Of a stretch of DNA of 64,000 bases, positions 1-36,915 are shown piece by piece. This stretch comes from Eledone cirrhosa (Eukaryota). A program made the translations under genes and the position numbers. Where the stretch lies: assembly GCA_964016885.1 (NCBI GenBank), contig OZ024742.1:255006001-255070000 (forward strand). The letters run 5' to 3'. Each line of letters starts with the position of its first letter. The stretch's first letter is position 1. Below the pieces are notes generated by a model, which saw only the letters and a list, made by a program, of their open reading frames with translations, was not told where the DNA came from and made no database searches.

Positions 1-3000
1 CTTCTAGTCAAATGGCCGATTCTAAAGAATCAATCACGTGACATAGAGGCTAGTTAGAAGGAATGGGATGGTAAGATGACTGACGCCTACTAACACCCCA
101 AAAAAAAATTTAGAAGTGGTTTTGGCAGGTTTGCTCGACAAATCAGTGATTTGGAGATAAATATAGATAATTTAATATATCAACTAACATAGGCGCACAG
201 ATGCACGTCCATGCCAGCAAATACACAGGTTATGTCATAGTACCTAGGTGGTTCAATGCAGGAGGGTGCAGAACAATAATATAAAAGACGTAAAATAAGA
301 AAATATTTTAAAAAAAATTTAAAAAATTTTTTTTACTTACTTACTTAAATTTTCACTCCAACTAATTAGTTTCTGCAATGGGATAAAGACAGTTACATAA
401 TCCAACTGTCGAGAATTCATTGCGTCATCAGGGAGTCTATTCTCAGCTGAGTCTCCAGGCAATGCGCGGACACTGGCGGCTCATATAAAAATAATAATAA
501 TTCGGTAGAAAGAACAGCTGGCGAGGACTGGATTCTATGTACTGAAATTCTCACTGCTTCTAGTCAAATGGCCGATTCTAAAGAATCAATCACGTGACAT
601 AGAGGCTAGTTAGAAGGAATGGGATGGTAAGATGACTGACGCCTACTAACACCCCAAAAAAAAATTTAGAAGTGGTTTTGGCAGGTTTGCTCGACAAATC
701 AGTGATTTGGAGATAAATATAGATAATTTAATATATCAACTAACATAGGCGCACAGATGCACGTCCATGCCAGCAAATACACAGGTTATGTCATAGTACC
801 TAGGTGGTTCAATGCAGGAGGGTGCAGAACAATAATATAAAAGACGTAAAATAAGAAAATATTTTTTAAAAAATTTTTAAAATTTTTTTTACTTACTTAC
901 TTAAATTTTCACTCCAACTAATTAGTTTCTGCAATGGGATAAAGACAGTTACATAATCCAACTGTCGAGAATTCATTGCGTCATCAGGGAGTCTATTCTC
1001 AGCTGAGTCTCCAGGCAATGCGCGGACACTGGCGGCTCATATAAAAATAATAATAATTCGGTAGAAAGAACAGCTGGCGAGGACTGGATTCTATGTACTG
1101 AAATTCTCACTGCTTCTAGTCAAATGGCCGATTCTAAAGAATCAATCACGTGACATAGAGGCTAGTTAGAAGGAATGGGATGGTAAGATGACTGACGCCT
1201 ACTAACACCCCAAAAAAAATTTAGAAGTGGTTTTGGCAGGTTTGCTCGACAAATCAGTGATTTGGAGATAAATATAGATAATTTAATATATCAACTAACA
1301 TAGGCGCACAGATGCACGTCCATGCCAGCAAATACACAGGTTATGTCATAGTACCTAGGTGGTTCAATGCAGGAGGGTGCAGAACAATAATATAAAAGAC
1401 GTAAAATAAGAAAATATTTTTTAAAGAATTTTAAAAAAATTTTTTACTTACTTACTTAAATTTTCACTCCAACTAATTAGTTTCTGCAATGGGATAAAGA
1501 CAGTTAAATAATCCAACTGTCGAGAATTCATTGTGTCATCAGGGAGTCTATTCTCAGCTGAGTCTCCAGGCAATGCGCGGACACTGGCGGCTCATATGAA
1601 AATAATAATAATTTGGTAGAAAGAACAGCTGGCGAGGACTGGATTCTATGTACTGAAATTCTCAATGCTTCTAGTCAAATGGCCGATTCTAAAGAATCAA
1701 TCACGTGACATAGAGGCTAGTTAGAAGGAATGGGATGGTAAGATAACTGACGCCTACTAACACCCCAAAAAAAAATTTAGAAGTGGTTTTGGCAGGTTTG
1801 CTCGACAAATCAGTGATTTGGAGATAAATATAGATAATTTAATATATCAACTAACATAGGCGCACAGATGCACGTCCATGCCAGCAAATACACAGGTTAT
1901 GTCATAGTACCTAGGTGGTTCAATGCAGGAGGGTGCAGAACAATAATATAAAAGACGTAAAATAAGAAAATATTTTTTAAAATATTTTAAAAAAATTTTT
2001 TACTTACTTACTTAAATTTTCACTCCAACTAATTAGTTTCTGCAATGGGATAAAGACAGTTACATAATCCAACTGTCGAGAATTCATTGCGTCATCAGGG
2101 AGTCTATTCTCAGCTGAGTCTCCAGGCAATGCGCGGACACTGGCGGCTCATATAAAAATAATAATAATTCGGTAGAAAGAACAGCTGGCGAGGACTGGAT
2201 TCTATGTACTGAAATTCTCACTGCTTCTAGTCAAATGGCCGATTCTAAAGAATCAATCACGTGACATAGAGGCTAGTTAGAAGGAATGGGATGGTAAGAT
2301 GACTGACGCCTACTAACACCCCAAAAAAAAATTTAGAAGTGGTTTTGGCAGGTTTGCTCGACAAATCAGTGATTTGGAGATAAATATAGATAATTTAATA
2401 TATCAACTAACATATGCGTACAGATGCACGTCCATGCCAGCAAATACACAGGTTATGTCATAGTACCTAGGTGGTTCAATGCAGGAGGGTGCAGAACAAT
2501 AATATAAAAGACGTAAAATAAGAAAATATTTTTTAAAAAATGTTTAAAAACTTTTTTACTTACTTACTTAAATTTTCACTCCAACTAATTAGTTTCTGCA
2601 ATGGGATAAAGACAGTTACATAATCCAACTGTCGAGAATTCATTGCGTCATCAGGGAGTCTATTCTCAGCTGAGTCTCCAGGCAATGCGCGGACACTGGC
2701 GGCTCATATAAAAATAATAATAATTCGGTAGAAAGAACAGCTGGCGAGGACTGGATTCTATGTACTGAAATTCTCACTGCTTCTAGTCAAATGGCCGATT
2801 CTAAAGAATCAATCACGTGACATAGAGGCTAGTTAGAAGGAATGGGATGGTAAGATGACTGACGCCTACTAACACCCCAAAAAAAAATTTAGAAGTGGTT
2901 TTGGCAGGTTTGCTCGACAAATCAGTGATTTGGAGATAAATATAGATAATTTAATATATCAACTAACATAGGCGCACAGATGCACGTCCATGCCAGCAAA

Positions 3001-6000
3001 TACACAGGTTATGTCATAGTACCTAGGTGGTTCAATGCAGGAGGGTGCAGAACAATAATATAAAAGACGTAAAATAAGAAAATATTTTAAAAAAAATTTT
3101 AAAAATTTTTTTTACTTACTTACTTAAATTTTCACTCCAACTAATTAGTTTCTGCAATGGGATAAAGACAGTTACATAATCCAACTGTCGAGAATTCATT
3201 GCGTCATCAGGGAGTCTATTCTCAGCTGAGTCTCCAGGCAATGCGCGAACACTGGCGGCTCATATAAAAATAATAATAATTCGGTAGAAAGAACAGCTGG
3301 CGAGGACTGGATTCTATGTACTGAAATTCTCACTGCTTCTAGTCAAATGGCCGATTCTAAAGAATCAATCACGTGACATAGAGGCTAGTTAGAAGGAATG
3401 GGATGGTAAGATGACTGACGCCTACTAACACCCCAAAAAAAAATTTAGAAGTGGTTTTGGCAGGTTTGTTCGACAAATCAGTGATTTGGAGATAAATATA
3501 GATAATTTAATATATCAACTAACATATGCGTACAGATGCACGTCCATGCCAGCAAATACACAGGTTATGTCATAGTACCTAGGTGGTTCAATGCAGGAGG
3601 GTGCAGAACAATAATATAAAAGACGTAAAATAAGAAAATATTTTTTAAAAAATGTTTAAAAACTTTTTTACTTACTTACTTAAATTTTCACTCCAACTAA
3701 TTAGTTTCTGCAATGGGATAAAGACAGTTACATAATCCAACTGTCGAGAATTCATTGCGTCATCAGGGAGTCTATTCTCAGCTGAGTCTCCAGGCAATGC
3801 GCGGACACTGGCGGCTCATATAAAAATAATAATAATTCGGTAGAAAGAACAGCTGGCGAGGACTGGATTCTATGTACTGAAATTCTCACTGCTTCTAGTC
3901 AAATGGCCGATTCTAAAGAATCAATCACGTGACATAGAGGCTAGTTAGAAGGAATGGGATGGTAAGATGACTGACGCCTACTAACACCCCAAAAAAAAAT
4001 TTAGAAGTGGTTTTGGCAGGTTTGCTCGACAAATCAGTGATTTGGAGATAAATATAGATAATTTAATATATCAACTAACATATGCGTACAGATGCACGTC
4101 CATGCCAGCAAATACACAGGTTATGTCATAGTACCTAGGTGGTTCAATGCAGGAGGGTGCAGAACAATAATATAAAAGACGTAAAATAAGAAAATATTTT
4201 TTAAAAAATGTTTAAAAACTTTTTTACTTACTTACTTAAATTTTCACTCCAACTAATTAGTTTCTGCAATGGGATAAAGACAGTTACATAATCCAACTGT
4301 CGAGAATTCATTGCGTCATCAGGGAGTCTATTCTCAGCTGAGTCTCCAGGCAATGCGCGGACACTGGCGGCTCATATAAAAATAATAATAATTCGGTAGA
4401 AAGAACAGCTGGCGAGGACTGGATTCTATGTACTGAAATTCTCACTGCTTCTAGTCAAATGGCCGATTCTAAAGAATCAATCACGTGACATAGAGGCTAG
4501 TTAGAAGGAATGGGATGGTAAGATGACTGACGCCTACTAACACCCCAAAAAAAAATTTAGAAGTGGTTTTGGCAGGTTTGCTCGACAAATCAGTGATTTG
4601 GAGATAAATATAGATAATTTAATATATCAACTAACATAGGCGCACAGATGCACGTCCATGCCAGCAAATACACAGGTTATGTCATAGTACCTAGGTGGTT
4701 CAATGCAGGAGGGTGCAGAACAATAATATAAAAGACGTAAAATAAGAAAATATTTTAAAAAAAATTTTAAAAATTTTTTTTACTTACTTACTTAAATTTT
4801 CACTCCAACTAATTAGTTTCTGCAATGGGATAAAGACAGTTACATAATCCAACTGTCGAGAATTCATTGCGTCATCAGGGAGTCTATTCTCAGCTGAGTC
4901 TCCAGGCAATGCGCGGACACTGGCGGCTCATATAAAAATAATAATAATTCGGTAGAAAGAACAGCTGGCGAGGACTGGATTCTATGTACTGAAATTCTCA
5001 CTGCTTCTAGTCAAATGGCCGATTCTAAAGAATCAATCACGTGACATAGAGGCTAGTTAGAAGGAATGGGATGGTAAGATGACTGACGCCTACTAACACC
5101 CCAAAAAAAAATTTAGAAGTGGTTTTGGCAGGTTTGCTCGACAAATCAGTGATTTGGAGATAAATATAGATAATTTAATATATCAACTAACATAGGCGCA
5201 CAGATGCACGTCCATGCCAGCAAATACACAGGTTATGTCATAGTACCTAGGTGGTTCAATGCAGGAGGGTGCAGAACAATAATATAAAAGACGTAAAATA
5301 AGAAAATATTTTTTAAAAAATTTTTAAAATTTTTTTTACTTACTTACTTAAATTTTCACTCCAACTAATTAGTTTCTGCAATGGGATAAAGACAGTTACA
5401 TAATCCAACTGTCGAGAATTCATTGCGTCATCAGGGAGTCTATTCTCAGCTGAGTCTCCAGGCAATGCGCGGACACTGGCGGCTCATATAAAAATAATAA
5501 TAATTCGGTAGAAAGAACAGCTGGCGAGGACTGGATTCTATGTACTGAAATTCTCACTGCTTCTAGTCAAATGGCCGATTCTAAAGAATCAATCACGTGA
5601 CATAGAGGCTAGTTAGAAGGAATGGGATGGTAAGATGACTGACGCCTACTAACACCCCAAAAAAAATTTAGAAGTGGTTTTGGCAGGTTTGCTCGACAAA
5701 TCAGTGATTTGGAGATAAATATAGATAATTTAATATATCAACTAACATAGGCGCACAGATGCACGTCCATGCCAGCAAATACACAGGTTATGTCATAGTA
5801 CCTAGGTGGTTCAATGCAGGAGGGTGCAGAACAATAATATAAAAGACGTAAAATAAGAAAATATTTTTTAAAGAATTTTAAAAAAATTTTTTACTTACTT
5901 ACTTAAATTTTCACTCCAACTAATTAGTTTCTGCAATGGGATAAAGACAGTTAAATAATCCAACTGTCGAGAATTCATTGTGTCATCAGGGAGTCTATTC

Positions 6001-9000
6001 TCAGCTGAGTCTCCAGGCAATGCGCGGACACTGGCGGCTCATATGAAAATAATAATAATTTGGTAGAAAGAACAGCTGGCGAGGACTGGATTCTATGTAC
6101 TGAAATTCTCACTGCTTCTAGTCAAATGGCCGATTCTAAAGAATCAATCACGTGACATAGAGGCTAGTTAGAAGGAATGGGATGGTAAGATAACTGACGC
6201 CTACTAACACCCCAAAAAAAAATTTAGAAGTGGTTTTGGCAGGTTTGCTCGACAAATCAGTGATTTGGAGATAAATATAGATAATTTAATATATCAACTA
6301 ACATAGGCGCACAGATGCACGTCCATGCCAGCAAATACACAGGTTATGTCATAGTACCTAGGTGGTTCAATGCAGGAGGGTGCAGAACAATAATATAAAA
6401 GACGTAAAATAAGAAAATATTTTTTAAAATATTTTAAAAAAATTTTTTACTTACTTACTTAAATTTTCACTCCAACTAATTAGTTTCTGCAATGGGATAA
6501 AGACAGTTACATAATCCAACTGTCGAGAATTCATTGCGTCATCAGGGAGTCTATTCTCAGCTGAGTCTCCAGGCAATGCGCGGACACTGGCGGCTCATAT
6601 AAAAATAATAATAATTCGGTAGAAAGAACAGCTGGCGAGGACTGGATTCTATGTACTGAAATTCTCACTGCTTCTAGTCAAATGGCCGATTCTAAAGAAT
6701 CAATCACGTGACATAGAGGCTAGTTAGAAGGAATGGGATGGTAAGATGACTGACGCCTACTAACACCCCAAAAAAAATTTAGAAGTGGTTTTGGCAGGTT
6801 TGCTCGACAAATCAGTGATTTGGAGATAAATATAGATAATTTAATATATCAACTAACATAGGCGTACAGATGCACGTCCATGCCAGCAAATACACAGGTT
6901 ATGTCATAGTACCTAGGTGGTTCAATGCAGGAGGGTGCAGAACAATAATATAAAAGACGTAAAATAAGAAAATATTTTTTAAAAAATGTTTAAAAACTTT
7001 TTTACTTACTTACTTAAATTTTCACTCCAACTAATTAGTTTCTGCAATGGGATAAAGACAGTTACATAATCCAACTGTCGAGAATTCATTGCGTCATCAG
7101 GGAGTCTATTCTCAGCTGAGTCTCCAGGCAATGCGCGGACACTGGCGGCTCATATAAAAATAATAATAATTCGGTAGAAAGAACAGCTGGCGAGGACTGG
7201 ATTCTATGTACTGAAATTCTCACTGCTTCTAGTCAAATGGTCGATTCTAAAGAATCAATCACGTGACATAGAGGCTAGTTAGAAGGAATGGGATGGTAAG
7301 ATGACTGACGCCTACTAACACCCCAAAAAAAAATTTAGAAGTGGTTTTGGCAGGTTTGCTCGACAAATCAGTGATTTGGAGATAAATATAGATAATTTAA
7401 TATATCAACTAACATAGGCGCACAGATGCACGTCCATGCCAGCAAATACACAGGTTATGTCATAGTACCTAGGTGGTTCAATGCAGGAGGGTGCAGAACA
7501 ATAATATAAAAGACGTAAAATAAGAAAATATTTTAAAAAAAATTTAAAAAATTTTTTTTACTTACTTACTTAAATTTTCACTCCAACTAATTAGTTTCTG
7601 CAATGGGATAAAGACAGTTACATAATCCAACTGTCGAGAATTCATTGCGTCATCAGGGAGTCTATTCTCAGCTGAGTCTCCAGGCAATGCGCGGACACTG
7701 GCGGCTCATATAAAAATAATAATAATTCGGTAGAAAGAACAGCTGGCGAGGACTGGATTCTATGTACTGAAATTCTCACTGCTTCTAGTCAAATGGCCGA
7801 TTCTAAAGAATCAATCACGTGACATAGAGGCTAGTTAGAAGGAATGGGATGGTAAGATGACTGACGCCTACTAACACCCCAAAAAAAAATTTAGAAGTGG
7901 TTTTGGCAGGTTTGCTCGACAAATCAGTGATTTGGAGATAAATATAGATAATTTAATATATCAACTAACATATGCGTACAGATGCACGTCCATGCCAGCA
8001 AATACACAGGTTATGTCATAGTACCTAGGTGGTTCAATGCAGGAGGGTGCAGAACAATAATATAAAAGACGTAAAATAAGAAAATATTTTTTAAAAAATG
8101 TTTAAAAACTTTTTTACTTACTTACTTAAATTTTCACTCCAACTAATTAGTTTCTGCAATGGGATAAAGACAGTTACATAATCCAACTGTCGAGAATTCA
8201 TTGCGTCATCAGGGAGTCTATTCTCAGCTGAGTCTCCAGGCAATGCGCGGACACTGGCGGCTCATATAAAAATAATAATAATTCGGTAGAAAGAACAGCT
8301 GGCGAGGACTGGATTCTATGTACTGAAATTCTCACTGCTTCTAGTCAAATGGCCGATTCTAAAGAATCAATCACGTGACATAGAGGCTAGTTAGAAGGAA
8401 TGGGATGGTAAGATGACTGACGCCTACTAACACCCCAAAAAAAAATTTAGAAGTGGTTTTGGCAGGTTTGCTCGACAAATCAGTGATTTGGAGATAAATA
8501 TAGATAATTTAATATATCAACTAACATAGGCGCACAGATGCACGTCCATGCCAGCAAATACACAGGTTATGTCATAGTACCTAGGTGGTTCAATGCAGGA
8601 GGGTGCAGAACAATAATATAAAAGACGTAAAATAAGAAAATATTTTAAAAAAAATTTTAAAAATTTTTTTTACTTACTTACTTAAATTTTCACTCCAACT
8701 AATTAGTTTCTGCAATGGGATAAAGACAGTTACATAATCCAACTGTCGAGAATTCATTGCGTCATCAGGGAGTCTATTCTCAGCTGAGTCTCCAGGCAAT
8801 GCGCGGACACTGGCGGCTCATATAAAAATAATAATAATTCGGTAGAAAGAACAGCTGGCGAGGACTGGATTCTATGTACTGAAATTCTCACTGCTTCTAG
8901 TCAAATGGCCGATTCTAAAGAATCAATCACGTGACATAGAGGCTAGTTAGAAGGAATGGGATGGTAAGATGACTGACGCCTACTAACACCCCAAAAAAAA

Positions 9001-12000
9001 ATTTAGAAGTGGTTTTGGCAGGTTTGCTCGACAAATCAGTGATTTGGAGATAAATATAGATAATTTAATATATCAACTAACATAGGCGCACAGATGCACG
9101 TCCATGCCAGCAAATACACAGGTTATGTCATAGTACCTAGGTGGTTCAATGCAGGAGGGTGCAGAACAATAATATAAAAGACGTAAAATAAGAAAATATT
9201 TTTTAAAAAATTTTTAAAATTTTTTTTACTTACTTACTTAAATTTTCACTCCAACTAATTAGTTTCTGCAATGGGATAAAGACAGTTACATAATCCAACT
9301 GTCGAGAATTCATTGCGTCATCAGGGAGTCTATTCTCAGCTGAGTCTCCAGGCAATGCGCGGACACTGGCGGCTCATATAAAAATAATAATAATTCGGTA
9401 GAAAGAACAGCTGGCGAGGACTGGATTCTATGTACTGAAATTCTCACTGCTTCTAGTCAAATGGCCGATTCTAAAGAATCAATCACGTGACATAGAGGCT
9501 AGTTAGAAGGAATGGGATGGTAAGATGACTGACGCCTACTAACACCCCAAAAAAAATTTAGAAGTGGTTTTGGCAGGTTTGCTCGACAAATCAGTGATTT
9601 GGAGATAAATATAGATAATTTAATATATCAACTAACATAGGCGCACAGATGCACGTCCATGCCAGCAAATACACAGGTTATGTCATAGTACCTAGGTGGT
9701 TCAATGCAGGAGGGTGCAGAACAATAATATAAAAGACGTAAAATAAGAAAATATTTTTTAAAGAATTTTAAAAAAATTTTTTACTTACTTACTTAAATTT
9801 TCACTCCAACTAATTAGTTTCTGCAATGGGATAAAGACAGTTAAATAATCCAACTGTCGAGAATTCATTGTGTCATCAGGGAGTCTATTCTCAGCTGAGT
9901 CTCCAGGCAATGCGCGGACACTGGCGGCTCATATGAAAATAATAATAATTTGGTAGAAAGAACAGCTGGCGAGGACTGGATTCTATGTACTGAAATTCTC
10001 ACTGCTTCTAGTCAAATGGCCGATTCTAAAGAATCAATCACGTGACATAGAGGCTAGTTAGAAGGAATGGGATGGTAAGATAACTGACGCCTACTAACAC
10101 CCCAAAAAAAAATTTAGAAGTGGTTTTGGCAGGTTTGCTCGACAAATCAGTGATTTGGAGATAAATATAGATAATTTAATATATCAACTAACATAGGCGC
10201 ACAGATGCACGTCCATGCCAGCAAATACACAGGTTATGTCATAGTACCTAGGTGGTTCAATGCAGGAGGGTGCAGAACAATAATATAAAAGACGTAAAAT
10301 AAGAAAATATTTTTTAAAATATTTTAAAAAAATTTTTTACTTACTTACTTAAATTTTCACTCCAACTAATTAGTTTCTGCAATGGGATAAAGACAGTTAC
10401 ATAATCCAACTGTCGAGAATTCATTGCGTCATCAGGGAGTCTATTCTCAGCTGAGTCTCCAGGCAATGCGCGGACACTGGCGGCTCATATAAAAATAATA
10501 ATAATTCGGTAGAAAGAACAGCTGGCGAGGACTGGATTCTATGTACTGAAATTCTCACTGCTTCTAGTCAAATGGCCGATTCTAAAGAATCAATCACGTG
10601 ACATAGAGGCTAGTTAGAAGGAATGGGATGGTAAGATGACTGACGCCTACTAACACCCCAAAAAAAATTTAGAAGTGGTTTTGGCAGGTTTGCTCGACAA
10701 ATCAGTGATTTGGAGATAAATATAGATAATTTAATATATCAACTAACATAGGCGTACAGATGCACGTCCATGCCAGCAAATACACAGGTTATGTCATAGT
10801 ACCTAGGTGGTTCAATGCAGGAGGGTGCAGAACAATAATATAAAAGACGTAAAATAAGAAAATATTTTTTAAAAAATGTTTAAAAACTTTTTTACTTACT
10901 TACTTAAATTTTCACTCCAACTAATTAGTTTCTGCAATGGGATAAAGACAGTTACATAATCCAACTGTCGAGAATTCATTGCGTCATCAGGGAGTCTATT
11001 CTCAGCTGAGTCTCCAGGCAATGCGCGGACACTGGCGGCTCATATAAAAATAATAATAATTCGGTAGAAAGAACAGCTGGCGAGGACTGGATTCTATGTA
11101 CTGAAATTCTCACTGCTTCTAGTCAAATGGTCGATTCTAAAGAATCAATCACGTGACATAGAGGCTAGTTAGAAGGAATGGGATGGTAAGATGACTGACG
11201 TCTACTAACACCCCAAAAAAAAATTTAGAAGTGGTTTTGGCAGGTTTGCTCGACAAATCAGTGATTTGGAGATAAATATAGATAATTTAATATATCAACT
11301 AACATAGGCGCACAGATGCACGTCCATGCCAGCAAATACACAGGTTATGTCATAGTACCTAGGTGGTTCAATGCAGGAGGGTGCAGAACAATAATATAAA
11401 AGACGTAAAATAAGAAAATATTTTTAAAAAAATTTAAAAAATTTTTTTTACTTACTTACTTAAATTTTCACTCCAACTAATTAGTTTCTGCAATGGGATA
11501 AAGACAGTTACATAATCCAACTGTCGAGAATTCATTGCGTCATCAGGGAGTCTATTCTCAGCTGAGTCTCCAGGCAATGCGCGGACACTGGCGGCTCATA
11601 TAAAAATAATAATAATTCGGTAGAAAGAACAGCTGGCGAGGACTGGATTCTATGTACTGAAATTCTCACTGCTTCTAGTCAAATGGCCGATTCTAAAGAA
11701 TCAATCACGTGACATAGAGGCTAGTTAGAAGGAATGGGATGGTAAGATGACTGACGCCTACTAACACCCCAAAAAAAAATTTAGAAGTGGTTTTGGCAGG
11801 TTTGCTCGACAAATCAGTGATTTGGAGATAAATATAGATAATTTAATATATCAACTAACATAGGCGCACAGATGCACGTCCATGCACGCAAATACACAGG
11901 TTATGTCATAGTACCTAGGTGGTTCAATGCAGGAGGGTGCAGAACAATAATATAAAAGACGTAAAATAAGAAAATATTTTTTAAAAAATTTTTAAAATTT

Positions 12001-15000: not shown

Positions 15001-18000
15001 CACTGCTTCTAGTCAAATGGCCGATTCTAAAGAATCAATCACGTGACATAGAGGCTAGTTAGAAGGAATGGGATGGTAAGATGACTGACGCCTACTAACA
15101 CCCCCCAAAAAAATTTAGAAGTGGTTTTGGCAGGTTTGCTCGACAAATCAGTGATTTGGAGATAAATATAGATAATTTAATATATCAACTAACATAGGCG
15201 CACAGATGCACGTCCATGCCAGCAAATACACAGGTTATGTCATAGTACCTAGGTGGTTCAATGCAGGAGGGTGCAGAACAATAATATAAAAGACGTAAAA
15301 TAAGAAAATATTTTTTAAAAAATCTTTAAAAAATTTTTTACTTACTAACTTAAATTTTCACTCCAACTAATTAGTTTCTGCAATGGGATAAAGACAGTTA
15401 CATAATCCAACTGTCGAGAATTCATTGCGTCATCAGGGAGTCTATTCTCAGCTGAGTCTCCAGGCAATGCGCGGACACTGGCGGCTCATATAAAATAATA
15501 ATAATTCGGTAGAAAGAACAGCTGGCGAGGACTGGATTCTATGTACTGAAATTCTCACTGCTTCTAGTCAAATGGCCGATTCTAAAGAATCAATCACGTG
15601 ACATAGAGGCTAGTTAGAAGGAATGGGATGGTAAGATGACTGACGCCTACTAACACCCCAAAAAAAAATTTAGAAGTGGTTTTGGCAGGTTTGCTCGACA
15701 AATCAGTGATTTGGAGATAAATATAGATAATTTAATATATCAACTAACATAGGCGCACAGATGCACGTCCATGCCAGCAAATACACAGGTTATGTCATAG
15801 TACCTAGGTGGTTCAATGCAGGAGGGTGCAGAACAATAATATAAAAGACGTAAAATAAGAAAATATTTTAAAAAAAATTTTAAAAAATTTTTTTACTTAC
15901 TTACTTAAATTTTCACTACAACTAATTAGTTTCTGCAATGGGATAAAGACAGTTACATAATCCAACTGTCGAGAATTCATTGCGTCATCAGGGAGTCTAT
16001 TCTCAGCTGAGTCTCCAGGCAATGCGCGGACACTGGCGGCTCATATAAAAATAATAATAATTCGGTAGAAAGAACAGCTGGCGAGGACTGGATTCTACGT
16101 ACTGAAATTCTCACTGCTTCTAGTCAAATGGCCGATTCTAAAGAATCAATCACGTGACATAGAGGCTAGTTAGAAGGAATGGGATGGTAAGATGACTGAC
16201 GCCTATTAACACCCCAAAAAAAAATTTAGAAGTGGTTTTGGCAGGTTTGCTCGACAAATCAGTGATTTGGAGATAAATATAGATAATTTAATATATCAAC
16301 TAACATATGCGCACAGATGCACGTCCATGCCAGCAAATACACAGGTTATGTCATAGTACCTAGGTGGTTCAATGCAGGAGGGTGCAGAACAATAATATAA
16401 AAGACGTAAAATAAGAAAATATTCTTAAAAAAATTTTTAAAAGATTTTTTACTTACTTACTTAAATTTTCACTCCAACTAATTAGTTTCTGCAATGGGAT
16501 AAAGACAGTTACATAATCCAACTGTCGAGAATTCATTGCGTCATCAGGGAGTCTATTCTCAGCTGAGTCTCCAGGCAATGCGCGGACACTGGCGGCTCAT
16601 ATAAAAATAATAATAATTCGGTAGAAAGAACAGCTGGCGAGGACTGGATTCTATGTACTGAAATTCTCACTGCTTCTAGTCAAATGGCCGATTCTAAAGA
16701 ATCAATCACGTGACATAGAGGCTAGTTAGAAGGAATGGGATGGTAAGATGACTGACGCCTACTAACACCCCAAAAAAAAATTTAGAAGTGGTTTTGGCAG
16801 GTTTGCTCGACAAATCAGTGATTTGGAGATAAATATAGATAATTTAATATATCAACTAACATAGGCGCACAGATGCACGTCCATGCCAGCAAATACACAG
16901 GTTATGTCATAGTACCTAGGTGGTTCAATGCAGGAGGGTGCAGAACAATAATATAAAAGACGTAAAATAAGAAAATATTTTTTAAAGAATTTTTAAAAAC
17001 TTTTTACTTACTTACTTAAATTTTCACTCCAACTAATTAGTTTCTGCAATGGGATAAAGACAGTTACATAATCCAACTGTCGAGAATTCATTGTGTCATC
17101 AGGGAGTCTATTCTCAGCTGAGTCTCCAGGCAATGCGCGGACACTGGCAGCTCATATAAAAATAATAATAATTTGGTAGAAAGAACAGCTGGCGAGGACT
17201 GGATTCTATGTACTGAAATTCTCACTGCTTCTAGTCAAATGGCCGATTCTAAAGAATCAATCACGTGACATAGAGGCTAGTTAGAAGGAATGGGATGGTA
17301 AGATGACTGACGCCTACTAACACCCCAAAAAAAAATTTAGAAGTGGTTTTGGCAGGTTTGCTCGACAAATCAGTGATTTGGAGATAAATATAGATAATTT
17401 AATATATCAACTAACATAGGCGCACAGATGCACGTCCATGCCAGCAAATACACAGGTTATGTCATAGTACCTAGGTGGTTCAATGCAGGAGGGTGCAGAA
17501 CAATAATATAAAAGACGTAAAATAAGAAAATATTTTTAAAAATATTTTAAAAAAATTTTTTACTTACTTACATAAATTTTCACTCCAACTAATTAGTTTC
17601 TGCAATGGGATAAAGACAGTTACATAATCCAACTGTCGAGAATTCATTGCGTCATCAGGGAGTCTATTCTCAGCTGAGTCTCCAGGCAATGCGCGGACAC
17701 TGGCGGCTCATATAAAAATAATAATAATTCGGTAGAAAGAACAGCTGGCGAGGACTGGATTCTATGTACTGAAATTCTCACTGCTTCTAGTCAAATGGCC
17801 GATTCTAAAGAATCAATCACGTGACATAGAGGCTAGTTAGAAGGAATGGGATGGTAAGATGACTGACGCCTACTAACACCCCAAAAAAAATTTAGAAGTG
17901 GTTTTGGCAGGTTTGCTCGACAAATCAGTGATTTGGAGATAAATATAGATAATTTAATATATCAACTAACATAGGCGCACAGATGCACGTCCATGCCAGC

Positions 18001-21000
18001 AAATACACAGGTTATGTCATAGTACCTAGGTGGTTCAATGCAGGAGGGTGCAGAACAATAATATAAAAGACGTAAAATAAGAAAATATTTTTTTAAAAAT
18101 TTTTAAAAATTTTTTTACTTACTTACTTAAATTTTCACTCCAACTAATTAGTTTCTGCAATGGGATAAAGACAGTTACATAATCCAACTGTCGAGAATTC
18201 ATTGCGTCATCAGGGAGTCTATTCTCAGCTGAGTCTCCAGGCAATGCGCGGACACTGGCGGCTCATATAAAAATAATAATAATTCGGTAGAAAGAACAGC
18301 TGGCGAGGACTGGATTCTATGTACTGAAATTCTCACTGCTTCTAGTCAAATGGCCGATTCTAAAGAATCAATCACGTGACATAGAGGCTAGTTAGAAGGA
18401 ATGGGATGGTAAGATGACTGACGCCTACTAACACCCCAAAAAAAAATTTAGAAGTGGTTTTGGCAGGTTTGCTCGACAAATCACTGATTTGGAAATAAAT
18501 ATAGATAATTTAATATATCAACTAACATATGCGCACAGATGCACGTCCATGCCAGCAAATACACAGGTTATGTCATAGTACCTAGGTGGTTCAATGCAGG
18601 AGGGTGCAGAACAATAATATAAAAGACGTAAAATAAGAAAATATTTTTAAAAAAATTTTTAAAAAATTTTTTACTTACTTACTTAAATTTTCACTCCAAC
18701 TAATTAGTTTCTGCAATGGGATAAAGACAGTTACATAATCCAACTGTCGAGAATTCATTGCGTCATCAGGGAGTCTATTCTCAGCTGAGTCTCCAGGCAA
18801 TGCGCGCACACTGGCGGCTCATATAAAAATAATAATAATTCGGTAGAAAGAACAGCTGGCGAGGACTGGATTCTATGTACTGAAATTCTCACTGCTTCTA
18901 GTCAAATGGCCGATTCTAAAGAATCAATCACGTGACATAGAGGCTAGTTAGAAGGAATGGGATGGTAAGATGACTGACGCCTACTAACACCCCAAAAAAA
19001 ATTTAGAAGTGGTTTTGGCAGGTTTGCTCGACAAATCAGTGATTTGGAGATAAATATAGATAATTTAATATATCAACTAACATAGGCGCACAGATGCACG
19101 TCCATGCCAGCAAATACACAGGTTATGTCATAGTACCTAGGTGGTTCAATGCAGGAGGGTGCAGAACAATAATATAAAAGACGTAAAATAAGAAAATATT
19201 TTTTAAAGAATTTTTAAAAACTTTTTACTTACTTACTTAAATTTTCACTCCAACTAGTTAGTTTCTGCAATGGGATAAAGACAGTTACATAATCCAACTG
19301 TCGAGAATTCATTGTGTCATCAGGGAGTCTATTCTCAGCTGAGTCTCCAGGCAATGCGCGGACACTGGCGGCTCATATAAAAATAATAATAATTTGGTAG
19401 AAAGAACAGCTGGCGAGGACTGGATTCTATGTACTGAAATTCTCACTGCTTCTAGTCAAATGGCCGATTCTAAAGAATCAATCACGTGACATAGAGGCTA
19501 GTTAGAAGGAATGGGATGGTAAGATGACTGACGCCTACTAACACCCCAAAAAAAAATTTAGAAGTGGTTTTGGCAGGTTTGCTCGACAAATCAGTGATTT
19601 GGAGATAAATATAGATAATTTAATATATCAACTAACATAGGCGCACAGATGCACGTCCATGCCAGCAAATACACAGGTTATGTCATAGTACCTAGGTGGT
19701 TCAATGCAGGAGGGTGCAGAACAATAATATAAAAGACGTAAAATAAGAAAATATTTTTTAAAATATTTAAAAAAAATTTTTTACTTACTTACTTAAATTT
19801 TCACTCCAACTAATTAGTTTCTGCAATGGGATAAAGACAGTTACATAATCCAACTGTCGAGAATTCATTGCGTCATCAGGGAGTCTATTCTCAGCTGAGT
19901 CTCCAGGCAATGCGCGGACACTGGCGGCTCATATAAAAATAATAATAATTCGGTAGAAAGAACAGCTGGCGAGGACTGGATTCTATGTACTGAAATTCTC
20001 ACTGCTTCTAGTCAAATGGCCGATTCTAAAGAATCAATCACGTGACATAGAGGCTAGTTAGAAGGAATGGGATGGTAAGATGACTGACGCCTACTAACAC
20101 CCCAAAAAAAAATTTAGAAGTGGTTTTGGCAGGTTTGCTCGACAAATCAGTGATTTGGAGATAAATATAGATAATTTAATATATCAACTAACATATGCGC
20201 ACAGATGCACGTCCATGCCAGCAAATACACAGGTTATGTCATAGTACCTAGGTGGTTCAATGCAGGAGGGTGCAGAACAATAATATAAAAGACGTAAAAT
20301 AAGAAAATATTTTTTAAAAAATCTTTAAAAAATTTTTTACTTACTTACTTAAATTTTCACTCCAACTAATTAGTTTCTGCAATGGGATAAAGACAGTTAC
20401 ATAATCCAACTGTCGAGAATTCATTGCGTCATCAGGGAGTCTATTCTCAGCTGAGTCTCCAGGCAATGCGCGGACACTGGCGGCTCATATAAAATAATAA
20501 TAATTCGGTAGAAAGAACAGCTGGCGAGGACAGGATTCTATGTACTGAAATTCTCACTGCTTCTAGTCAAATGGCCGATTCTAAAGAATCAATCACGTGA
20601 CATAGAGGCTAGTTAGAAGGAATGGGATGGTAAGATGACTGACGCCTACTAACACCCCAAAAAAAAATTTAGAAGTGGTTTTGGCAGGTTTGCTCGACAA
20701 ATCAGTGATTTGGAGATAAATATAGATAATTTAATATATCAACTAACATAGGCGCACAGATGCACGTCCATGCCAGCAAATACACAGGTTATGTCATAGT
20801 ACCTAGGTGGTTCAATGCAGGAGGGTGCAGAACAATAATATAAAAGACGTAAAATAAGAAAATATTTTTAAAAAAATTTTTAAAAATTTTTTTACTTACT
20901 TAAATTTTCACTCCAACTAATTAGTTTCTGCAATGGGATAAAGACAGTTACATAATCCAACTGTCGAGAATTCATTGCGTCATCAGGGAGTCTATTCTCA

Positions 21001-24000
21001 GCTGAGTCTCCAGGCAATGCGCGGACACTGGCGGCTCATATAAAAATAATAATAATTCGGTAGAAAGAACAGCTGGCGAGGACTGGATTCTATGTACTGA
21101 AATTCTCACTGCTTCTAGTCAAATGGCCGATTCTAAAGAATCAATCACGTGACATAGAGGCTAGTTAGAAGGAATGGGATGGTAAGATGACTGACACCTA
21201 CTAACACCCCAAAAAAAAATTTAGAAGTGGTTTTGGCAGGTTTGCTCGACAAATCAGTGATTTGGAGATAAATATAGATAATTTAATATATCAACTAACA
21301 TATGCGCACAGATGCACGTCCATGCCAGCAAATACACAGGTTATGTCATAGTACCTAGGTGGTTCAATGCAGGAGGGTGCAGAACAATAATATAAAAGAC
21401 GTAAAATAAGAAAATATTTTTTAAAAAATTTTTTAAAGATTTTTTACTTACTTACTTAAATTTTCACTCCAACTAATTAGTTTCTGCAATGGGATAAAGA
21501 CAGTTACATAATCCAACTGTCGAGAATTCATTGCGTCATCAGGGAGTCTATTCTCAGCTGAGTCTCCAGGCAATGCGCGGACACTGGCGGCTCATATAAA
21601 AATAATAATAATTCGGTAGAAAGAACAGCTGGCGAGGACTGGATTCTATGTACTGAAATTCTCACTGCTTCTAGTCAAATGGCCGATTCTAAAGAATCAA
21701 TCACGTGACATAGAGGCTAGTTAGAAGGAATGGGATGGTAAGATGACTGACGCCTACTAACACCCCAAAAAAAAATTTAGAAGTGGTTTTGGCAGGTTTG
21801 CTCGACAAATCAGTGATTTGGAGATAAATATAGATAATTTAATATATCAACTAACATATGCGCACAGATGCACGTCCATGCCAGCAAATACACAGGTTAT
21901 GTCATAGTACCTAGGTGGTTCAATGCAGGAGGGTGCAGAACAATAATATAAAAGACGTAAAATAAGAAAATATTTTTTAAAAAATCTTTAAAAAATTTTT
22001 TACTTACTTACTTAAATTTTCACTCCAACTAATTAGTTTCTGCAATGGGATAAAGACAGTTACATAATCCAACTGTCGAGAATTCATTGCGTCATCAGGG
22101 AGTCTATTCTCAGCTGAGTCTCCAGGCAATGCGCGGACACTGGCGGCTCATATAAAATAATAATAATTCGGTAGAAAGAACAGCTGGCGAGGACAGGATT
22201 CTATGTACTGAAATTCTCACTGCTTCTAGTCAAATGGCCGATTCTAAAGAATCAATCACGTGACATAGAGGCTAGTTAGAAGGAATGGGATGGTAAGATG
22301 ACTGACGCCTACTAACACCCCAAAAAAAAATTTAGAAGTGGTTTTGTCAGGTTTGCTCGACAAATCAGTGATTTGGAGATAAATATAGATAATTTAATAT
22401 ATCAACTAACATAGGCGCACAGATGCACGTCCATGCCAGCAAATACACAGGTTATGTCATAGTACCTAGGTGGTTCAATGCAGGAGGGTGCAGAACAATA
22501 ATATAAAAGACGTAAAATAAGAAAATATTTTTAAAAAAATTTTTAAAAATTTTTTTACTTACTTAAATTTTCACTCCAACTAATTAGTTTCTGCAATGGG
22601 ATAAAGACAGTTACATAATCCAACTGTCGAGAATTCATTGCGTCATCAGGGAGTCTATTCTCAGCTGAGTCTCCAGGCAATGCGCGGACACTGGCGGCTC
22701 ATATAAAAATAATAATAATTCGGTAGAAAGAACAGCTGGCGAGGACTGGATTCTATGTACTGAAATTCTCACTGCTTCTAGTCAAATGGCCGATTCTAAA
22801 GAATCAATCACGTGACATAGAGGCTAGTTAGAAGGAATGGGATGGTAAGATGACTGACACCTACTAACACCCCAAAAAAAAATTTAGAAGTGGTTTTGGC
22901 AGGTTTGCTCGACAAATCAGTGATTTGGAGATAAATATAGATAATTTAATATATCAACTAACATATGCGCACAGATGCACGTCCATGCCAGCAAATACAC
23001 AGGTTATGTCATAGTACCTAGGTGGTTCAATGCAGGAGGGTGCAGAACAATAATATAAAAGACGTAAAATAAGAAAATATTTTTTAAAAAATTTTTTAAA
23101 GATTTTTTACTTACTTACTTAAATTTTCACTCCAACTAATTAGTTTCTGCAATGGGATAAAGACAGTTACATAATCCAACTGTCGAGAATTCATTGCGTC
23201 ATCAGGGAGTCTATTCTCAGCTGAGTCTCCAGGCAATGCGCGGACACTGGCGGCTCATATAAAAATAATAATAATTCGGTAGAAAGAACAGCTGGCGAGG
23301 ACTGGATTCTATGTACTGAAATTCTCACTGCATCTAGTCAAATGGCCGATTCTAAAGAATCAATCACGTGACATAGAGGCTAGTTAGAAGGAATGGGATG
23401 GTAAGATGACTGACGCCTACTAACACCCCAAAAAAAAATTTAGAAGTGGTTTTGGCAGGTTTGCTCGACAAATCAGTGATTTGGAGATAAATATAGATAA
23501 TTTAATATATCAACTAACATAGGCGCACAGATGCACGTCCATGCCAGCAAATACACAGGTTATGTCATAGTACCTAGGTGGTTCAATGCAGGAGGGTGCA
23601 GAACAATAATATAAAAGACGTAAAATAAGAAAATATTTTTTTAAAAATTTTAAAAAAATTTTTTACTTACTTACTTAAATTTTCACTCCAACTAATTAGT
23701 TTCTGCAATGGGATAAAGACAGTTACATAATCCAACTGTCGAGAATTCATTGCGTCATCAGGGAGTCTATTCTCAGCTGAGTCTCCAGGCAATGCGCGGA
23801 CACTGGCGGATCATATAAAAATAATAATAATTCGGTAGAAAGAACAGCTGGCGAGGACTGGATTCTATGTACTGAAATTCTCACTGCTTCTAGTCAAATG
23901 GCCGATTCTAAAGAATCAATCACGTGACATAGAGGCTAGTTAGAAGGAATGGGATGGTAAGATGACTGACGCCTACTAACACCCCAAAAAAAAATTTAGA

Positions 24001-27000
24001 AGTGGTTTTGGCAGGTTTGCTCGACAAATCAGTGATTTGGAGATAAATATAGATAATTTAATATATCAACTAACATAGGCGCACAGATGCACGTCCATGC
24101 CAGCAAATACACAGGTTATGTCATAGTACCTAGGTGGTTCAATGCAGGAGGGTGCAGAACAATAATATAAAAGACGTAAAATAAGAAAATATTTTTTTTA
24201 AAATTTTTAAACATTTTTTTACTTACTTACTTAAATTTTCAGTCCAACTAATTAGTTTCTGCAATGGGATAAAGACAGTTACATAATCCAACTGTCGAGA
24301 ATTCATTGCGTCATCAGGGAGTCTATTCTCAGCTGAGTCTCCAGGCAATGCGCGGACACTGGCGGCTCATATAAAAATAATAATAATTCGGTAGAAAGAA
24401 CAGCTGGCGAGGACTGGATTCTATGTACTGAAATTCTCACTGCTTCTAGTCAAATGGCCGATTCTAAAGAATCAATCACGTGACATAGAGGCTAGTTAGA
24501 AGGAATGGGATGGTAAGATGACTGACGCCTACTAACACCCCAAAAAAAAATTTAGAAGTGGTTTTGGCAGGTTTGCTCGACAAATCAGTGATTTGGAGAT
24601 AAATATAGATAATTTAATATATCAACTAACATATGCGCACAGATGCACGTCCATGCCAGCAAATACACAGGTTATGTCATAGTACCTAGGTGGTTCAATG
24701 CAGGAGGGTGCAGAACAATAATATAAAAGACGTAAAATAAGAAAATATTTTTTAAAAAATTTTAAAAAAATTTTTTACTTACTTACTTAAATTTTCACTC
24801 CAACTAATTAGTTTCTGCAATGGGATAAAGACAGTTACATAATCCAACTGTCGAGAATTCATTGCGTCATCAGGGAGTCTATTCTCAGCTGAGTCTCCAG
24901 GCAATGCGCGGACACTGGCGGCTCATATAAAAATAGTAATAATTCCGTAGAAAGAACAGCTGGCGAGGACTGGATTCTATGTACTGAAATTCTCACTGCT
25001 TCTAGTCAAATGGCCGATTCTAAAGAATCAATCACGTGACATAGAGGCTAGTTAGAAGGAATGGGATGGTAAGATGACTGACGCCTACTAACACCCCAAC
25101 AAAAATTTAGAAGTGGTTTTGGCAGGTTTGCTCGACAAATCAGTGATTTGGAGATAAATATAGATAATTTAATATATCAACTAACATAGGCGCACAGATG
25201 CACGTCCATGCCAGCAAATACACAGGTTATGTCATAGTACCTAGGTGGTTCAATGCAGGAGGGTGCAGAACAATAATATAAAAGACGTAAAATAAGAAAA
25301 TATTTTTTAAAGAATTTTTAAAAACTTTTTACTTACTTACTTAAATTTTCACTCCAACTAATTAGTTTCTGCAATGGGATAAAGACAGTTACATAATCCA
25401 ACTGTCGAGAATTCATTGTGTCATCAGGGAGTCTATTCTCAGCTGAGTCTCCAGGCAATGCGCGGACACTGGCGGCTCATATAAAAATAATAATAATTCG
25501 GTAGAAAGAACAGCTGGCGAGGACTGGATTCTATGTACTGAAATTCTCACTGCTTCTAGTCAAATGGCCGATTCTAAAGAATCAATCACGTGACATAGAG
25601 GCTAGTTAGAAGGAATGGGATGGTAAGATGACTGACGCCTACTAACACCCCCCAAAAAAATTTAGAAGTGGTTTTGGCAGGTTTGCTCGACAAATCAGTG
25701 ATTTGGAGATAAATATAGATAATTTAATATATCAACTAACATAGGCGCACAGATGCACGTCCATGCCAGCAAATACACAGGTTATGTCATAGTACCTAGG
25801 TGGTTCAATGCAGGAGGGTGCAGAACAATAATATAAAAGACGTAAAATAAGAAAATATTTTTTAAAATATTTTAAAAAAATTTTTTACTTACTTACTTAA
25901 ATTTTCACTCCAAATAATTAGTTTCTGCAATGGGATAAAGACAGTTACATAATCCAACTGTCGAGAATTCATTGCGTCATCAGGGAGTCTATTCTCAGCT
26001 GAGTCTCCAGGCAATGCGCGGACACTGGCGGCTCATATAAAAATAATAATAATTCGGTAGAAAGAACAGCTGGCGAGGACTGGATTCTATGTACTGAAAT
26101 TCTCACTGCTTCTAGTCAAATGGCCGATTCTAAAGAATCAATCACGTGACATAGAGGCTAGTTAGAAGGAATGGGATGGTAAGATGACTGACGCCTACTA
26201 ACACCCCCAAAAAAAATTTAGAAGTGGTTTTGGCAGGTTTGCACGACAAATCAGTGATTTGGAGATAAATATAGATAATTTAATATATCAACTAACATAG
26301 GCGTACAGATGCACGTCCATGCCAGCAAATACACAGGTTATGTCATAGTACCTAGGTGGTTCAATGCAGGAGGGTGCAGAACAATAATATAAAAGACGTA
26401 AAATAAGAAAATATTTTTTGAAAAATTTTTAAAAACTTTTTTACTTACTTACTTAAATTTTCACTCCAACTAATTAGTTTCTGCAATGGGATAAAGACAG
26501 TTACATAATCCAACTGTCGAGAATTCATTGCGTCATCAGGGAGTCTATTCTCAGCTGAGTCTCCAGGCAATGCGCGGACACTGGCGGCTCATATAAAAAT
26601 AATAATAATTTGGTAGAAAGAACAGCTGGCGAGGACTGGATTCTATGTACTGAAATTCTCACTGCTTCTAGTCAAATGGCCGATTCTAAAGAATCAATCA
26701 CGTGACATAGAGGCTAGTTAGAAGGAATGGGATGGTAAGATGACTGACGCCTACTAACACCCCAAAAAAAATTTAGAAGTTGTTTTGGCAAGTTTGCTCG
26801 ACAAATCAGTGATTTGGAGATAAATATAGATAATTTAATATATCAACTAACATAGGCGCACAGATGCACGTCCATGCCAGCAAATACACAGGTTATGTCA
26901 TAGTACCTAGCTGGTTCAATGCAGGAGGGTGCAGAACAATAATATAAAAGACGTAAAATAAGAAAATATTTTTTAAAGAATTTTTAAAAACTTTTTACTT

Positions 27001-28012
27001 ACTTACTTAAATTTTCACTCCAACTAATTAGTTTCTGCAATGGGATAAAGACAGTTACATAATCCAACTGTCGAGAATTCATTGTGTCATCAGGGAGTCT
27101 ATTCTCAGCTGAGTCTCCAGGCAATGCGCGGACACTGGCGGCTCATATAAAAATAATAATAATTTGGTAGAAAGAACAGCTGGCGAGGACTGGATTCTAT
27201 GTACTGAAATTCTCACTGCTTCTAGTCAAATGGCCGATTCTAAAGAATCAATCACGTGACATAGAGGCTAGTTAGAAGGAATGGGATGGTAAGATGACTG
27301 ACGCCTACTAACACCCCCAAAAAAAATTTAGAAGTGGTTTTGGCAGGTTTGCTCGACAAATCAGTGATTTGGAGATAAATATAGATAATTTAATATATCA
27401 ACTAACATAGGCGCACAGATGCACGTCCATGCCAGCAAATACACAGGTTATGTCATAGTACCTAGGTGGTTCAATGCAGGAGGGTGCAGAACAATAATAT
27501 AAAAGACGTAAAGTAAGAAAATATTTTTTTAAAAAATTTGTTAAAAATTTTTTACTTACTTAAATTTTCACTCCAACTAATTAGTTTCTACAATGGGATA
27601 AAGACAGTTACATAACCCAACTGTCGAGAATTCATTGCGTCATCAGGGAGTCTATTCTCAGCTGAGTCTCCAGGCAATGCGCGGACACTGGCGGCTCATA
27701 TATAAATAATAATAATTCGGTAGAAAGAACAGCTGGCGAGGACTGGATTCTATGTACTGAAATTCTCACTGCTTCTAGTCAAATGGCCGATTCTAAAGAA
27801 TCAATCACGTGACATAGAGGCTAGTTAGAAGGAATGGGATGGTAAGATGACTGACGCCTACTAACACCCCAAAAAAAAATTTAGTAGTGGTTTTGGCAGG
27901 TTTGCTCGACAAATCAGTGATTTGGAGATAAATATAGATAATTTAATATATCAACTAACATAGGCGCACATATGCACGTCCATGCCAGCAAATACACAGG
28001 TTATGTCATAGT
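1..28012 (-). repeat. Tandem array of ~556-bp monomers (~50.4 copies, open at the window start), each carrying a hammerhead ribozyme; retrozyme-like satellite
   Basis: CTTCTAGTCAAATGGCCG recurs at 1, 557, 1113, 1668, 2224, 2780, 3336, 3892 and onward. Monomers differ by only a few SNPs and A/T-tract indels. No ORF of 60 aa or more in the ORF track. Confidence 0.98.
355..436 (-). ncRNA. Type I hammerhead ribozyme (monomer 1; repeated every ~556 bp)
   Basis: Minus strand reads ACUCC CUGAUGA C-GCAAUG [AAUUCUC GACAGUU GGAUUAUGU AACUGUC UUUAUCC] CAUUGC-A GAAAC UAAUUA GUU^ GGAGU. Stem I 5 bp, stem II 6+7 bp, stem III within the palindrome AACUAAUUAGUU, cleavage triplet GUU. Confidence 0.85.
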
Positions 28013-28263
28013 CCTCGCCAGCTGTTCTTTCTACCGAATTATTATTATTTTTATATGAGCCGCCAGTGTCCGCGCATTGCCTGGAGACTCAGCTGAGAAT
28101 AGACTCCCTGATGACGCAATGAATTCTCGACAGTTGGATTATGTAACTGTCTTTATCCCATTGCAGAAACTAATTAGTTGGAGTGAAAATTTAAGTAAGT
28201 AAGTAAAAATTTTTTTAAAATTTTTTAAAAAATATTTTCTTATTTTACGTCTTTTATATTATT
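28010..28263 (+). repeat. Inverted partial monomer terminating the array (reverse complement of monomer positions ~275-529)
   Basis: AGTCCTCGCCAGCTG...CTTTTATATTATT is the reverse complement of the monomer. The junction has a 3-bp AGT microhomology at 28010-28012. Confidence 0.95.
28103..28184 (+). ncRNA. Hammerhead ribozyme in the inverted terminal copy
   Basis: ACTCC CTGATGA (28108-28114) CGCAATG...CATTGCA GAAAC (28166-28170) TAATTA GTT GGAGT. Confidence 0.85.
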
Positions 28264-28274
28264 ATTATATATAT

Positions 28275-36615: not shown

Positions 36616-36694
<79 letters not shown>

Positions 36695-36718
36695 ATATTA
36701 TATATATATATATATATA
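36530..36718. repeat. (TA)n microsatellite with TAAACATAT interruptions
   Basis: Direct reading. Confidence 0.95.
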
Positions 36719-36915
36719 TTTCGTTTCTGAATTTGTTTAGCAAGATTCTTTATCTGAAAACATGTGTTGAAACCGATATTGTTATACTTTGGGAGGGTCA
36801 TGTTGCCAATAAGAAACACACGCACCAGTTGATTTCACTTCAATTTATTACAAATTAAATTTATAAATTTCCGGTTGGTTGGTTGGTTCCACAACCAGAT
36901 GATTGTTCATATATT

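Follow-up and report, generated by a model that had tools for sequence, protein, structure and literature searches.

Schistosoma Sm-alpha and cricket pDo500 are tandem repeats with type I hammerhead ribozymes. Newt satellite 2 consists of repeats of the same kind, whose transcription and cleavage have been demonstrated (PMC7229834). Published retrozyme arrays reach 62-mers (PMC7229834), and a preprint describes arrays of 180 and 300 units, unit lengths of 51–972 bp, cleavage in one of nine tested elements and, for part of the Xenopus families, homology to the termini of Penelope-like elements (PLEs) (bioRxiv 10.64898/2026.07.22.740005). Arguments about which enzyme mobilises animal retrozymes still rely on co-occurrence and on homology of the termini, and according to a 2020 review the retrozyme repeats show no motif that identifies a partner (PMC7761336). 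PLE insertions themselves have a recognizable signature, an inverted truncated copy with a 30–40-bp tail at one end (PMC8557442, PMC3846280); in vitro, the tail of an anole PLE is the stretch between two internal start sites for the reverse transcriptase (RT), and the enzyme nicks and extends both strands (PMC11167929). Here, we describe a 64,000-nucleotide window of the genome of the octopus Eledone cirrhosa (GCA_964016885.1, contig OZ024742.1, positions 255,006,001–255,070,000) that carries an array of hammerhead-bearing 556-bp units. By every structural feature tested, the element is a metazoan non-LTR (long terminal repeat) retrozyme, and the array is one insertion among thousands of copies, not a lone satellite. 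Because the ends of these insertions match those of PLEs, the retrozyme is likely to be moved by Penelope-like machinery.

The window is part of a 379-Mb contig in a genome of 3.0 Gb. The original prediction of about 50 tandem units of about 556 bp was borne out by a hammerhead anchor that recurs 50 times on the minus strand between positions 421 and 27636, at a spacing of 551–556 bp, and the array, given there as 28 kb or longer, measures about 30.3 kb, starting 2,061 bp upstream of the first base of the window. Its main arm (30,073 bp; 1..28012 of the window, minus strand) is made of head-to-tail units of 551–556 bp, with 54 predicted cleavage sites and 53 full units, a GC content of 36–37% and a mean pairwise divergence of 0.63% (99.4% alike). 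Upstream, the arm is bounded by the long 3′ end, which bears the tail and sits in an (AT)n tract. An inverted arm (28010..28266, plus strand), joined head-to-head with a 3-nt overlap, contains unit nt 387–556 and 1–88, numbered from the predicted cut, and a single hammerhead at 28102–28184, the 51st of the window; it terminates at a short 3′ site (~28260). Both outer ends of the array lie within AT-rich tracts. Since blocks of the array are nearly identical, the assembled unit count may be off by some units. Contigs from three runs of unrecorded kind contained the head-to-tail joint over window positions 150–700 in three of three cases; one of the runs, at a depth of about 3, was from a second organism and was not used as evidence.

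The type I hammerhead claimed for every monomer was confirmed. In the first unit (355..436, minus strand), it comprises stem I (ACUCC/GGAGU), CUGAUGA (431–425), stem II (423–418 with 380–375), GAAAC (373–369) and GUU (362–360), with the predicted cut between 360 and 359. Stem II has 6 bp and is capped in the predicted fold by a 7×7 internal loop and a hairpin, while stem III is palindromic. The base of stem II is formed by a C10.1(424)·A11.1(374) mismatch instead of the standard 10.1–11.1 pair, a feature that the original prediction had missed; together with the branched cap and the GUU site, it makes this hammerhead atypical. The 50 minus-strand copies represent eight distinct sequences. The type I arrangement (CUGANGA, GAAA, UH and stems I–III in type I order) was present in 47 of them, in which the core, stem I and the stem III pairs next to the core are intact; in 38, the palindromic loop III and the complete six-pair stem II are preserved as well. 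A permissive hammerhead descriptor matched none of 3000 dinucleotide shuffles of the unit on either strand. The unit RNA is structured (z = -3.3), and no tRNA that might point to a tRNA origin was found within positions 1–1700.

Five versions of stem II exist in the genome, and 18 hand-picked rows of related subfamilies, five in all, were aligned. Across these rows, 98.1% of the stem II cells are paired and two of the six pairs change on both sides, one as CG/UA/AU/GC and the other as UA/GC, giving 37 doubly changed cells compared to a shuffled mean of 12.9. Changes in stem I are one-sided only, stem III is invariant, and the C10.1·A11.1 mismatch is found in 18 of 18 rows. The core, the mismatch, stem III and GUU are nearly invariant across subfamilies that are ~70% alike, while stem II covaries. 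Judged by these alignments, the ribozyme is held under structural constraint. The covariation also backs the claimed identity as a hammerhead-bearing non-LTR retrozyme, which fits the other characters of the element: putatively non-coding tandem units with one type I hammerhead each, a GC content below 50% and no LTR arrangement. The C·A mismatch is expected to weaken the ribozyme, so that its activity is likely reduced, and a GUU site is cut more slowly than GUC. We nevertheless think that the hammerhead of the unit probably does cleave. A 5-bp complement between GAGAA (444–440, upstream of stem I) and UUCUC (415–411, in the loop on stem II) could form a pseudoknot (411..444, minus strand), with 95.6% of its cells paired; because none of its pairs changes on both sides, we treat this possible stem I extension/loop II contact as hypothetical. 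Such stem I/loop II contacts are common among hammerheads (PMC3088659).

The 22-nt hammerhead motif has 4,434 exact matches in the genome, compared to none for a reversed control, and the motif of the short end has 8,105; a subfamily ~70% alike yielded 2,876 candidates on first look. The first set examined had 72 loci, of which 57 came, ordered by position, from the initial 100 motif matches on contig C1 and 15 were the best BLAST hits; further sets comprised 32 young loci, 42 loci from other subfamilies and eight multi-unit loci. In the 72-locus set, 23, 59, 27, 6 and 2 arms cross 0, 1, 2, 3 and 4 ribozyme junctions, respectively, and most dispersed insertions consist of 1–4 units, so that the family is represented by many dispersed monomer-to-oligomer copies. 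A second long array (L225–L227; G000:C1:301308221-301327581) has 34 full units, 0.89% internal divergence and both PLE-type ends intact, and a further array elsewhere in the genome has nine full units. About 45 kb upstream of the window, locus L015 contains an independent short insertion of the same family (L015:4701-5667) and a diverged subfamily copy (L015:705-1317). One allele typical of the window array was considered to be private to it, but this was ruled out by 415 matches genome-wide; the site is of CpG type.

The retrozyme arms have two fixed 3′ ends, a short one at nt 81 and a long one at nt ~198–206, about 120 nt apart. The stretch between the short site (window 279) and the long site (nt 198–203, window 162–157) constitutes a tail of ~120 nt (157..279, minus strand) that is present in every unit, and both sites finish in UAUAU-like letters. 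Just upstream of the long end, the tail contains a long hairpin (178..232, minus strand), a candidate RT-binding element in which double changes between subfamilies affect two of the 32 predicted pairs (12 rows). Short or long ends run into (AT)n in 159 of 165 cases, the same microsatellite targeting as is seen for the PLEs of this genome. Head-to-head inversions make up 45 of the 72 loci of subfamily A, of which 39 combine a short and a long end, one has two short ends and five are unclassifiable (p = 3.7e-11). The independent young set contains 22 inversions among 32 loci (14 short plus long, none with two short ends, eight unclassifiable), and the 42 loci of subfamilies B and C, most of which were picked for having a long end, include 17 short plus long, one with two short ends, 11 unclassifiable and 13 single-arm loci. 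Pooled over all classifiable inversions, 70 of 72 carry one short and one long end, that is, an inverted 5′-truncated copy with a tail at one end only, as in a PLE passenger. The same rule holds for the array in the window and for those of 34 and nine units. The inversion junctions have an overlap of 0–5 nt in 26 of 45 cases. The earlier proposal that PLEs mobilise the element thereby gains direct genomic support from the two fixed 3′ ends, the head-to-head inversions and the (AT)n targets.

Some of these loci are duplicates. A 4.9-kb tandem duplication with one retrozyme insertion occurs twice, 200 kb apart (L189, L190 and L224; C3 near 139.32 and 139.52 Mb); its 4.9-kb period had been considered as a retrozyme serving as a pseudo-LTR (pLTR), but it is a tandem duplication without a long genuine reading frame. 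L193 and L194 are 850 kb apart and have a common junction. Both cases suggest segmental duplication or uncollapsed haplotypes. L193 and L194, apparently one duplicated locus, were both included in the end count of the young set, where they are unclassifiable, and L194 was omitted from the arm-allele and 5′-end analyses. L155, which overlaps L149, was omitted from the end count of subfamilies B and C, and both were omitted from the 5′-end analysis, while the near-identical single-arm loci L163 and L164 were both included in the B/C count.

An autonomous PLE of the genome follows a comparable end rule. The family to which the PLE in the window belongs is abundant (19,596 candidates) and has reading frames of >1000 aa with an RT, a zinc-finger linker and, at the C-terminus, a GIY-YIG domain, by which it is assigned to the Neptune/Nematis type. 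Its tail is ~58 nt, and among 11 divergent end pairs, nine are short plus long and two unclassifiable.

The divergence of units is 0.83% inside an arm, 1.26% from arm to arm and 6.07% from locus to locus, and in 315 of 330 cases the two arms agree in their subfamily allele. Variants within insertions are mostly found in one locus only (177 of 212 distinct variants), although the arms of L018 are 1.8% apart and an arm of L030 mixes subfamily alleles. The similarity of the arms fits the use of one RNA per insertion, and also gene conversion or a homogeneous RNA pool. In a bin chosen after seeing the data, nt 1–15 after the predicted cut, we observed 18 5′ ends against 6.7 expected (p = 2e-4; five sets, 161 passages), including a few within 3 nt of the cut (L047, L206 and L034). 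For nt 1–30, the counts were 5 against 2.0 in the position-ordered set (p = 0.055) and 6 against 1.5 in the young set. The other 143 of the 161 passages (~89%) run on past nt 1–15 of the junction, so that the majority of the ribozyme junctions were intact in the templates that were copied. These patterns hint at partial cleavage in vivo, with junctions mostly intact or re-ligated; alternatively, pausing in an A/U-rich, structured stretch could account for the excess of 5′ ends.

The long array appears to have grown after its insertion. Units 29–35 recur as 36–42, units 14–17 as 18–21 and units 8–10 as 11–13, and the five units closest to the inversion have more differences than the others. These block duplications and the steep fall in the lengths of dispersed arms favour lengthening by unequal exchange after insertion. 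The 34- and 9-unit arrays likewise keep both ends.

Taken together, we consider it likely that the array is a PLE-mobilised retrozyme insertion that was enlarged locally. The minus strand would be transcribed as multimers, in which the hammerhead would cleave behind GUU, at a rate that the C·A mismatch probably keeps low, so that cut RNA, uncut RNA and perhaps circles would occur side by side. At an (AT)n tract, a PLE enzyme would then nick the two DNA strands and use each as a primer, starting at RNA nt 81 on one and at nt ~200 on the other; such priming from both target strands seems to us somewhat better than an even bet. The two cDNAs would cross intact junctions, halt at variable points and join head-to-head over the short overlaps described above; typical insertion products have 1–4 junctions per arm. 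A few insertions, including that in the window, would likely reach 34–53 units by unequal exchange while retaining both original ends. A more tentative idea, which we regard as possible but doubtful, is that a retrozyme unrelated to PLE termini evolved its own 120-nt landing pad that lets one RNA occupy the two active sites of a PLE dimer, each insertion being written twice from a single molecule, once per strand. A deliberately slow hammerhead (C·A, GUU) would then spare most junctions, allowing multimers or circles to be copied, and the long arrays with their retained insertion ends would record the passage of a ribozyme retroelement into a satellite.

A number of results weigh against this account. 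Rfam gave no match at the gathering thresholds for the whole window, nor at E<=10 for positions 1–1200, so the check proposed with the original prediction failed. The number of stem II pairs that change on both sides was equalled in 97 of 500 shuffles, and the aligned rows were hand-picked and related. A published survey discarded candidates with a 10.1–11.1 mismatch and named U·U, a published exception to the standard pair, as the best tolerated (PMC3088659), and eight of nine predicted Xenopus retrozymes showed no cleavage in vitro (bioRxiv 10.64898/2026.07.22.740005). At ~120 nt, the retrozyme tail exceeds both the 30–40 bp published for PLE tails and the ~58 nt seen in the local PLE, and because the ends lie in (AT)n, a target-site duplication is unreadable there. 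Searches for a partner covered top-scoring candidates, including 30 GIY-YIG loci and a second PLE family with 887-aa frames. Neither the first PLE family (38 loci) nor 60 further PLE/GIY-YIG loci showed pLTR-type homology to the unit, the only clear matches being adjacent retrozyme insertions; given this sampling, a homologous partner may still exist. Similarity between the ends of the unit and those of four PLE families reached p = 0.048 at best in 10 uncorrected comparisons, and an apparent resemblance between the short end and the end of one PLE proved not significant (p = 0.24–0.37). The 5′-end excess is weak within individual sets and absent in one of them (5 against 1.8, 3 against 0.6, 1 against 1.1, 7 against 2.2 and 2 against 1.0), its bin was set post hoc, and RT pausing or alignment blur in the A/U-rich region could contribute to it. 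Gene conversion, finally, could have made the two arms alike.

Against this background, several alternatives were weighed. A conventional chromosomal satellite whose hammerhead-like motif arose by chance would suit a homogeneous tandem array with signs of unequal exchange and no Rfam match, but we find it hardly credible: the descriptor matched 0/3000 shuffles, stem II covaries, and thousands of dispersed copies with fixed ends contradict it. More substantial is the idea that a single event, in which a circular monomer was reverse-transcribed by the rolling-circle mode, produced all 53 units, which were then rearranged only slightly. A circular template is the published model (PMC7229834), both original array ends are intact, the units are 99.4% alike, the small insertion L233 has five full units over both arms without a difference in the scored columns, and the 177 of 212 within-insertion variants confined to one locus would also be accounted for. 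However, the steep drop of dispersed arms (59, 27, 6 and 2 crossing 1, 2, 3 and 4 junctions), the blocks of shared variants that recur along the array, the mixing of subfamily alleles in some arms (L030) and the excess of stops near the cut, which suggests some linear templates, make this explanation rather improbable. Much the same degree of doubt attaches to an origin of the head-to-head form by self-priming of antisense transcripts or fold-back of cDNA, rather than by priming on both target strands. Self-priming was proposed for rotifer Penelope elements (PMC3846280), and a few junctions are palindromic (L079, L085 and L038), but most arms stop at unrelated unit positions with 0–5 nt of overlap, and fold-back leaves the one-short/one-long outer ends in 70 of 72 inversions unexplained.

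Two further alternatives, both unlikely in our view, concern the ribozyme and its source. The hammerhead might be a slow or dead relic, kept as a fold bound by a PLE protein, with the element moving as uncut multimeric RNA. The mismatch lies at the most conserved pair of stem II, 143 of 161 passages (~89%) continue past nt 1–15 of the junction, and hammerhead mutants had no effect on insertion of the anole PLE in vitro (PMC11167929). What a relic does not readily explain is the near-invariance of the core, mismatch, stem III and GUU across subfamilies ~70% alike while stem II covaries, and the clustering of 5′ ends directly after the predicted cut, some at <=3 nt (L047, L206 and L034). The unit might instead be the detached pLTR of an autonomous PLE family that was not sampled: 24 of 57 Xenopus retrozyme families match known transposable elements, nearly all of them PLEs, at their termini (bioRxiv 10.64898/2026.07.22.740005), and the genome has several PLE families, from which only the best-scoring candidates were fetched. 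However, 30 loci taken by the short-end motif were retrozyme subfamilies where examined, none of the 72 loci has a retrozyme arm that runs on into a PLE reading frame, and the hammerheads of the local PLEs are minimal, unlike that of the retrozyme. A PLE-mobilised, locally enlarged insertion thus remains our preferred explanation.

Outside the array, the window contains a decayed PLE (36623..40659, minus strand) with RT fragments, a C-X4-C-XX-C linker and, at the C-terminus, a GIY-YIG domain. It has direct and inverted pLTRs in (TA)n, with one-short/one-long ends, but no homology to the retrozyme unit. Its presence had been taken as a sign of a joint system; this is not sustained, as the PLE and the unit have no sequence in common, and the closeness of the two is most simply explained by the (AT)n target common to both. 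The 556-bp unit is itself too short to hold the RT plus GIY-YIG frame of an autonomous PLE, and all PLE protein matches in retrozyme loci fall outside the arms. The best homologue of the PLE protein is from Octopus vulgaris (69% identity), while Pfam and PDB searches with it returned little. One long PLE frame (L121:2588-6088) has an asparagine-rich N-terminal region, recalling the N-rich inserts of rotifer Penelope elements. A second abundant PLE family (L265–L294) has many 887-aa open frames with an RT plus a GIY-YIG domain at the C-terminus, and a long (CA)-rich terminal repeat, in which a motif scan found no hammerhead.

A minimal hammerhead (CUGACGA core, 4-nt palindromic loop III) at 39548–39590 (plus strand) and an inverted copy at ~39140–39180 lie in a small inverted element nested in the window PLE, and the motif was found again at other loci. 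At least eight more hammerhead types occur in the fetched loci (L017, L023, L026, L035, L060, L079, L080, L121, L128 and others), many with a palindromic loop III; several of them are arranged as inverted pairs, and a long branched stem II is seen in some. The genome is likely to host many more PLE-dependent ribozyme elements. The remainder of the window (28300–36300, 44476–47545, 48011–52902 and 53800–60300) holds decayed non-LTR retroelements, tentatively labelled from their frames: RTE-like pieces, one element with a restriction-like endonuclease motif and one L1/Tx1-like element.

An undescribed system had been proposed on the basis of copy number and homogeneity. This does not hold, as arrays of 62, 180 and 300 units are published, so the size of the array is not new, and the array is one locally expanded insertion among thousands. 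In the literature searched, as far as the available text of the sources goes, we found no description of fixed two-site ends and head-to-head arms for retrozymes, although a prior description is possible. Nor was any literature found on an octopus hammerhead, a hammerhead with C10.1·A11.1, the ends or targets of retrozymes in this respect or PLE twin priming, in a search largely outside subscription journals and supplements. A variant missed by Rfam and by descriptors that demand a 10.1–11.1 pair implies that similar families may be undercounted. What the present data add to the question of the mobilising enzyme is that the insertion ends themselves bear the PLE signature at high count, with predicted start sites at nt 81 and ~200. 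The one-short/one-long rule, common to the retrozyme and the autonomous PLE, also bears on the debated origin of the inverted structures of PLEs.

Compared to known systems, the element most resembles the metazoan non-LTR retrozymes of coral, mussel and axolotl (PMC7229834), with low-GC head-to-tail units carrying one type I hammerhead each, thousands of copies that are mostly short oligomers with few long arrays, co-occurring PLEs, a structured unit RNA and a short stem III with a palindromic loop. The 556-bp unit is above the 150–450 bp given there but within the 51–972 bp of the preprint (bioRxiv 10.64898/2026.07.22.740005). At the base of stem II, C·A is found here and U·U in the axolotl retrozyme, and the branched stem II and GUU site also set the present element apart, as does the lack of detectable PLE pLTR homology, unlike part of the Xenopus families. 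The likeness to newt satellite 2, Sm-alpha and pDo500 is one of organisation, not of compared sequence. Partial tandems, an inverted 5′-truncated copy and an extension at one end are shared with PLEs of the Neptune/Nematis type (PMC8557442, PMC3846280, PMC11167929), as are the microsatellite targeting and, probably, two internal start sites of endonuclease-positive PLEs, from which the retrozyme differs by its lack of coding capacity and its full-size, rather than minimal, hammerhead. Like Chlamys MRC1 (PMC8557442), it would be a non-autonomous PLE passenger with multicopy head-to-tail insertions; the 3′ ends of the Chlamys elements, however, are similar to those of their autonomous partner, and most of these elements have no hammerhead, whereas no partner match was found here among the candidates searched. 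Relative to known retrozymes, the element differs in its variant of the hammerhead, its tail of ~120 nt, the PLE homology that was not found and the end rule backed by counts, in an array of otherwise ordinary size.

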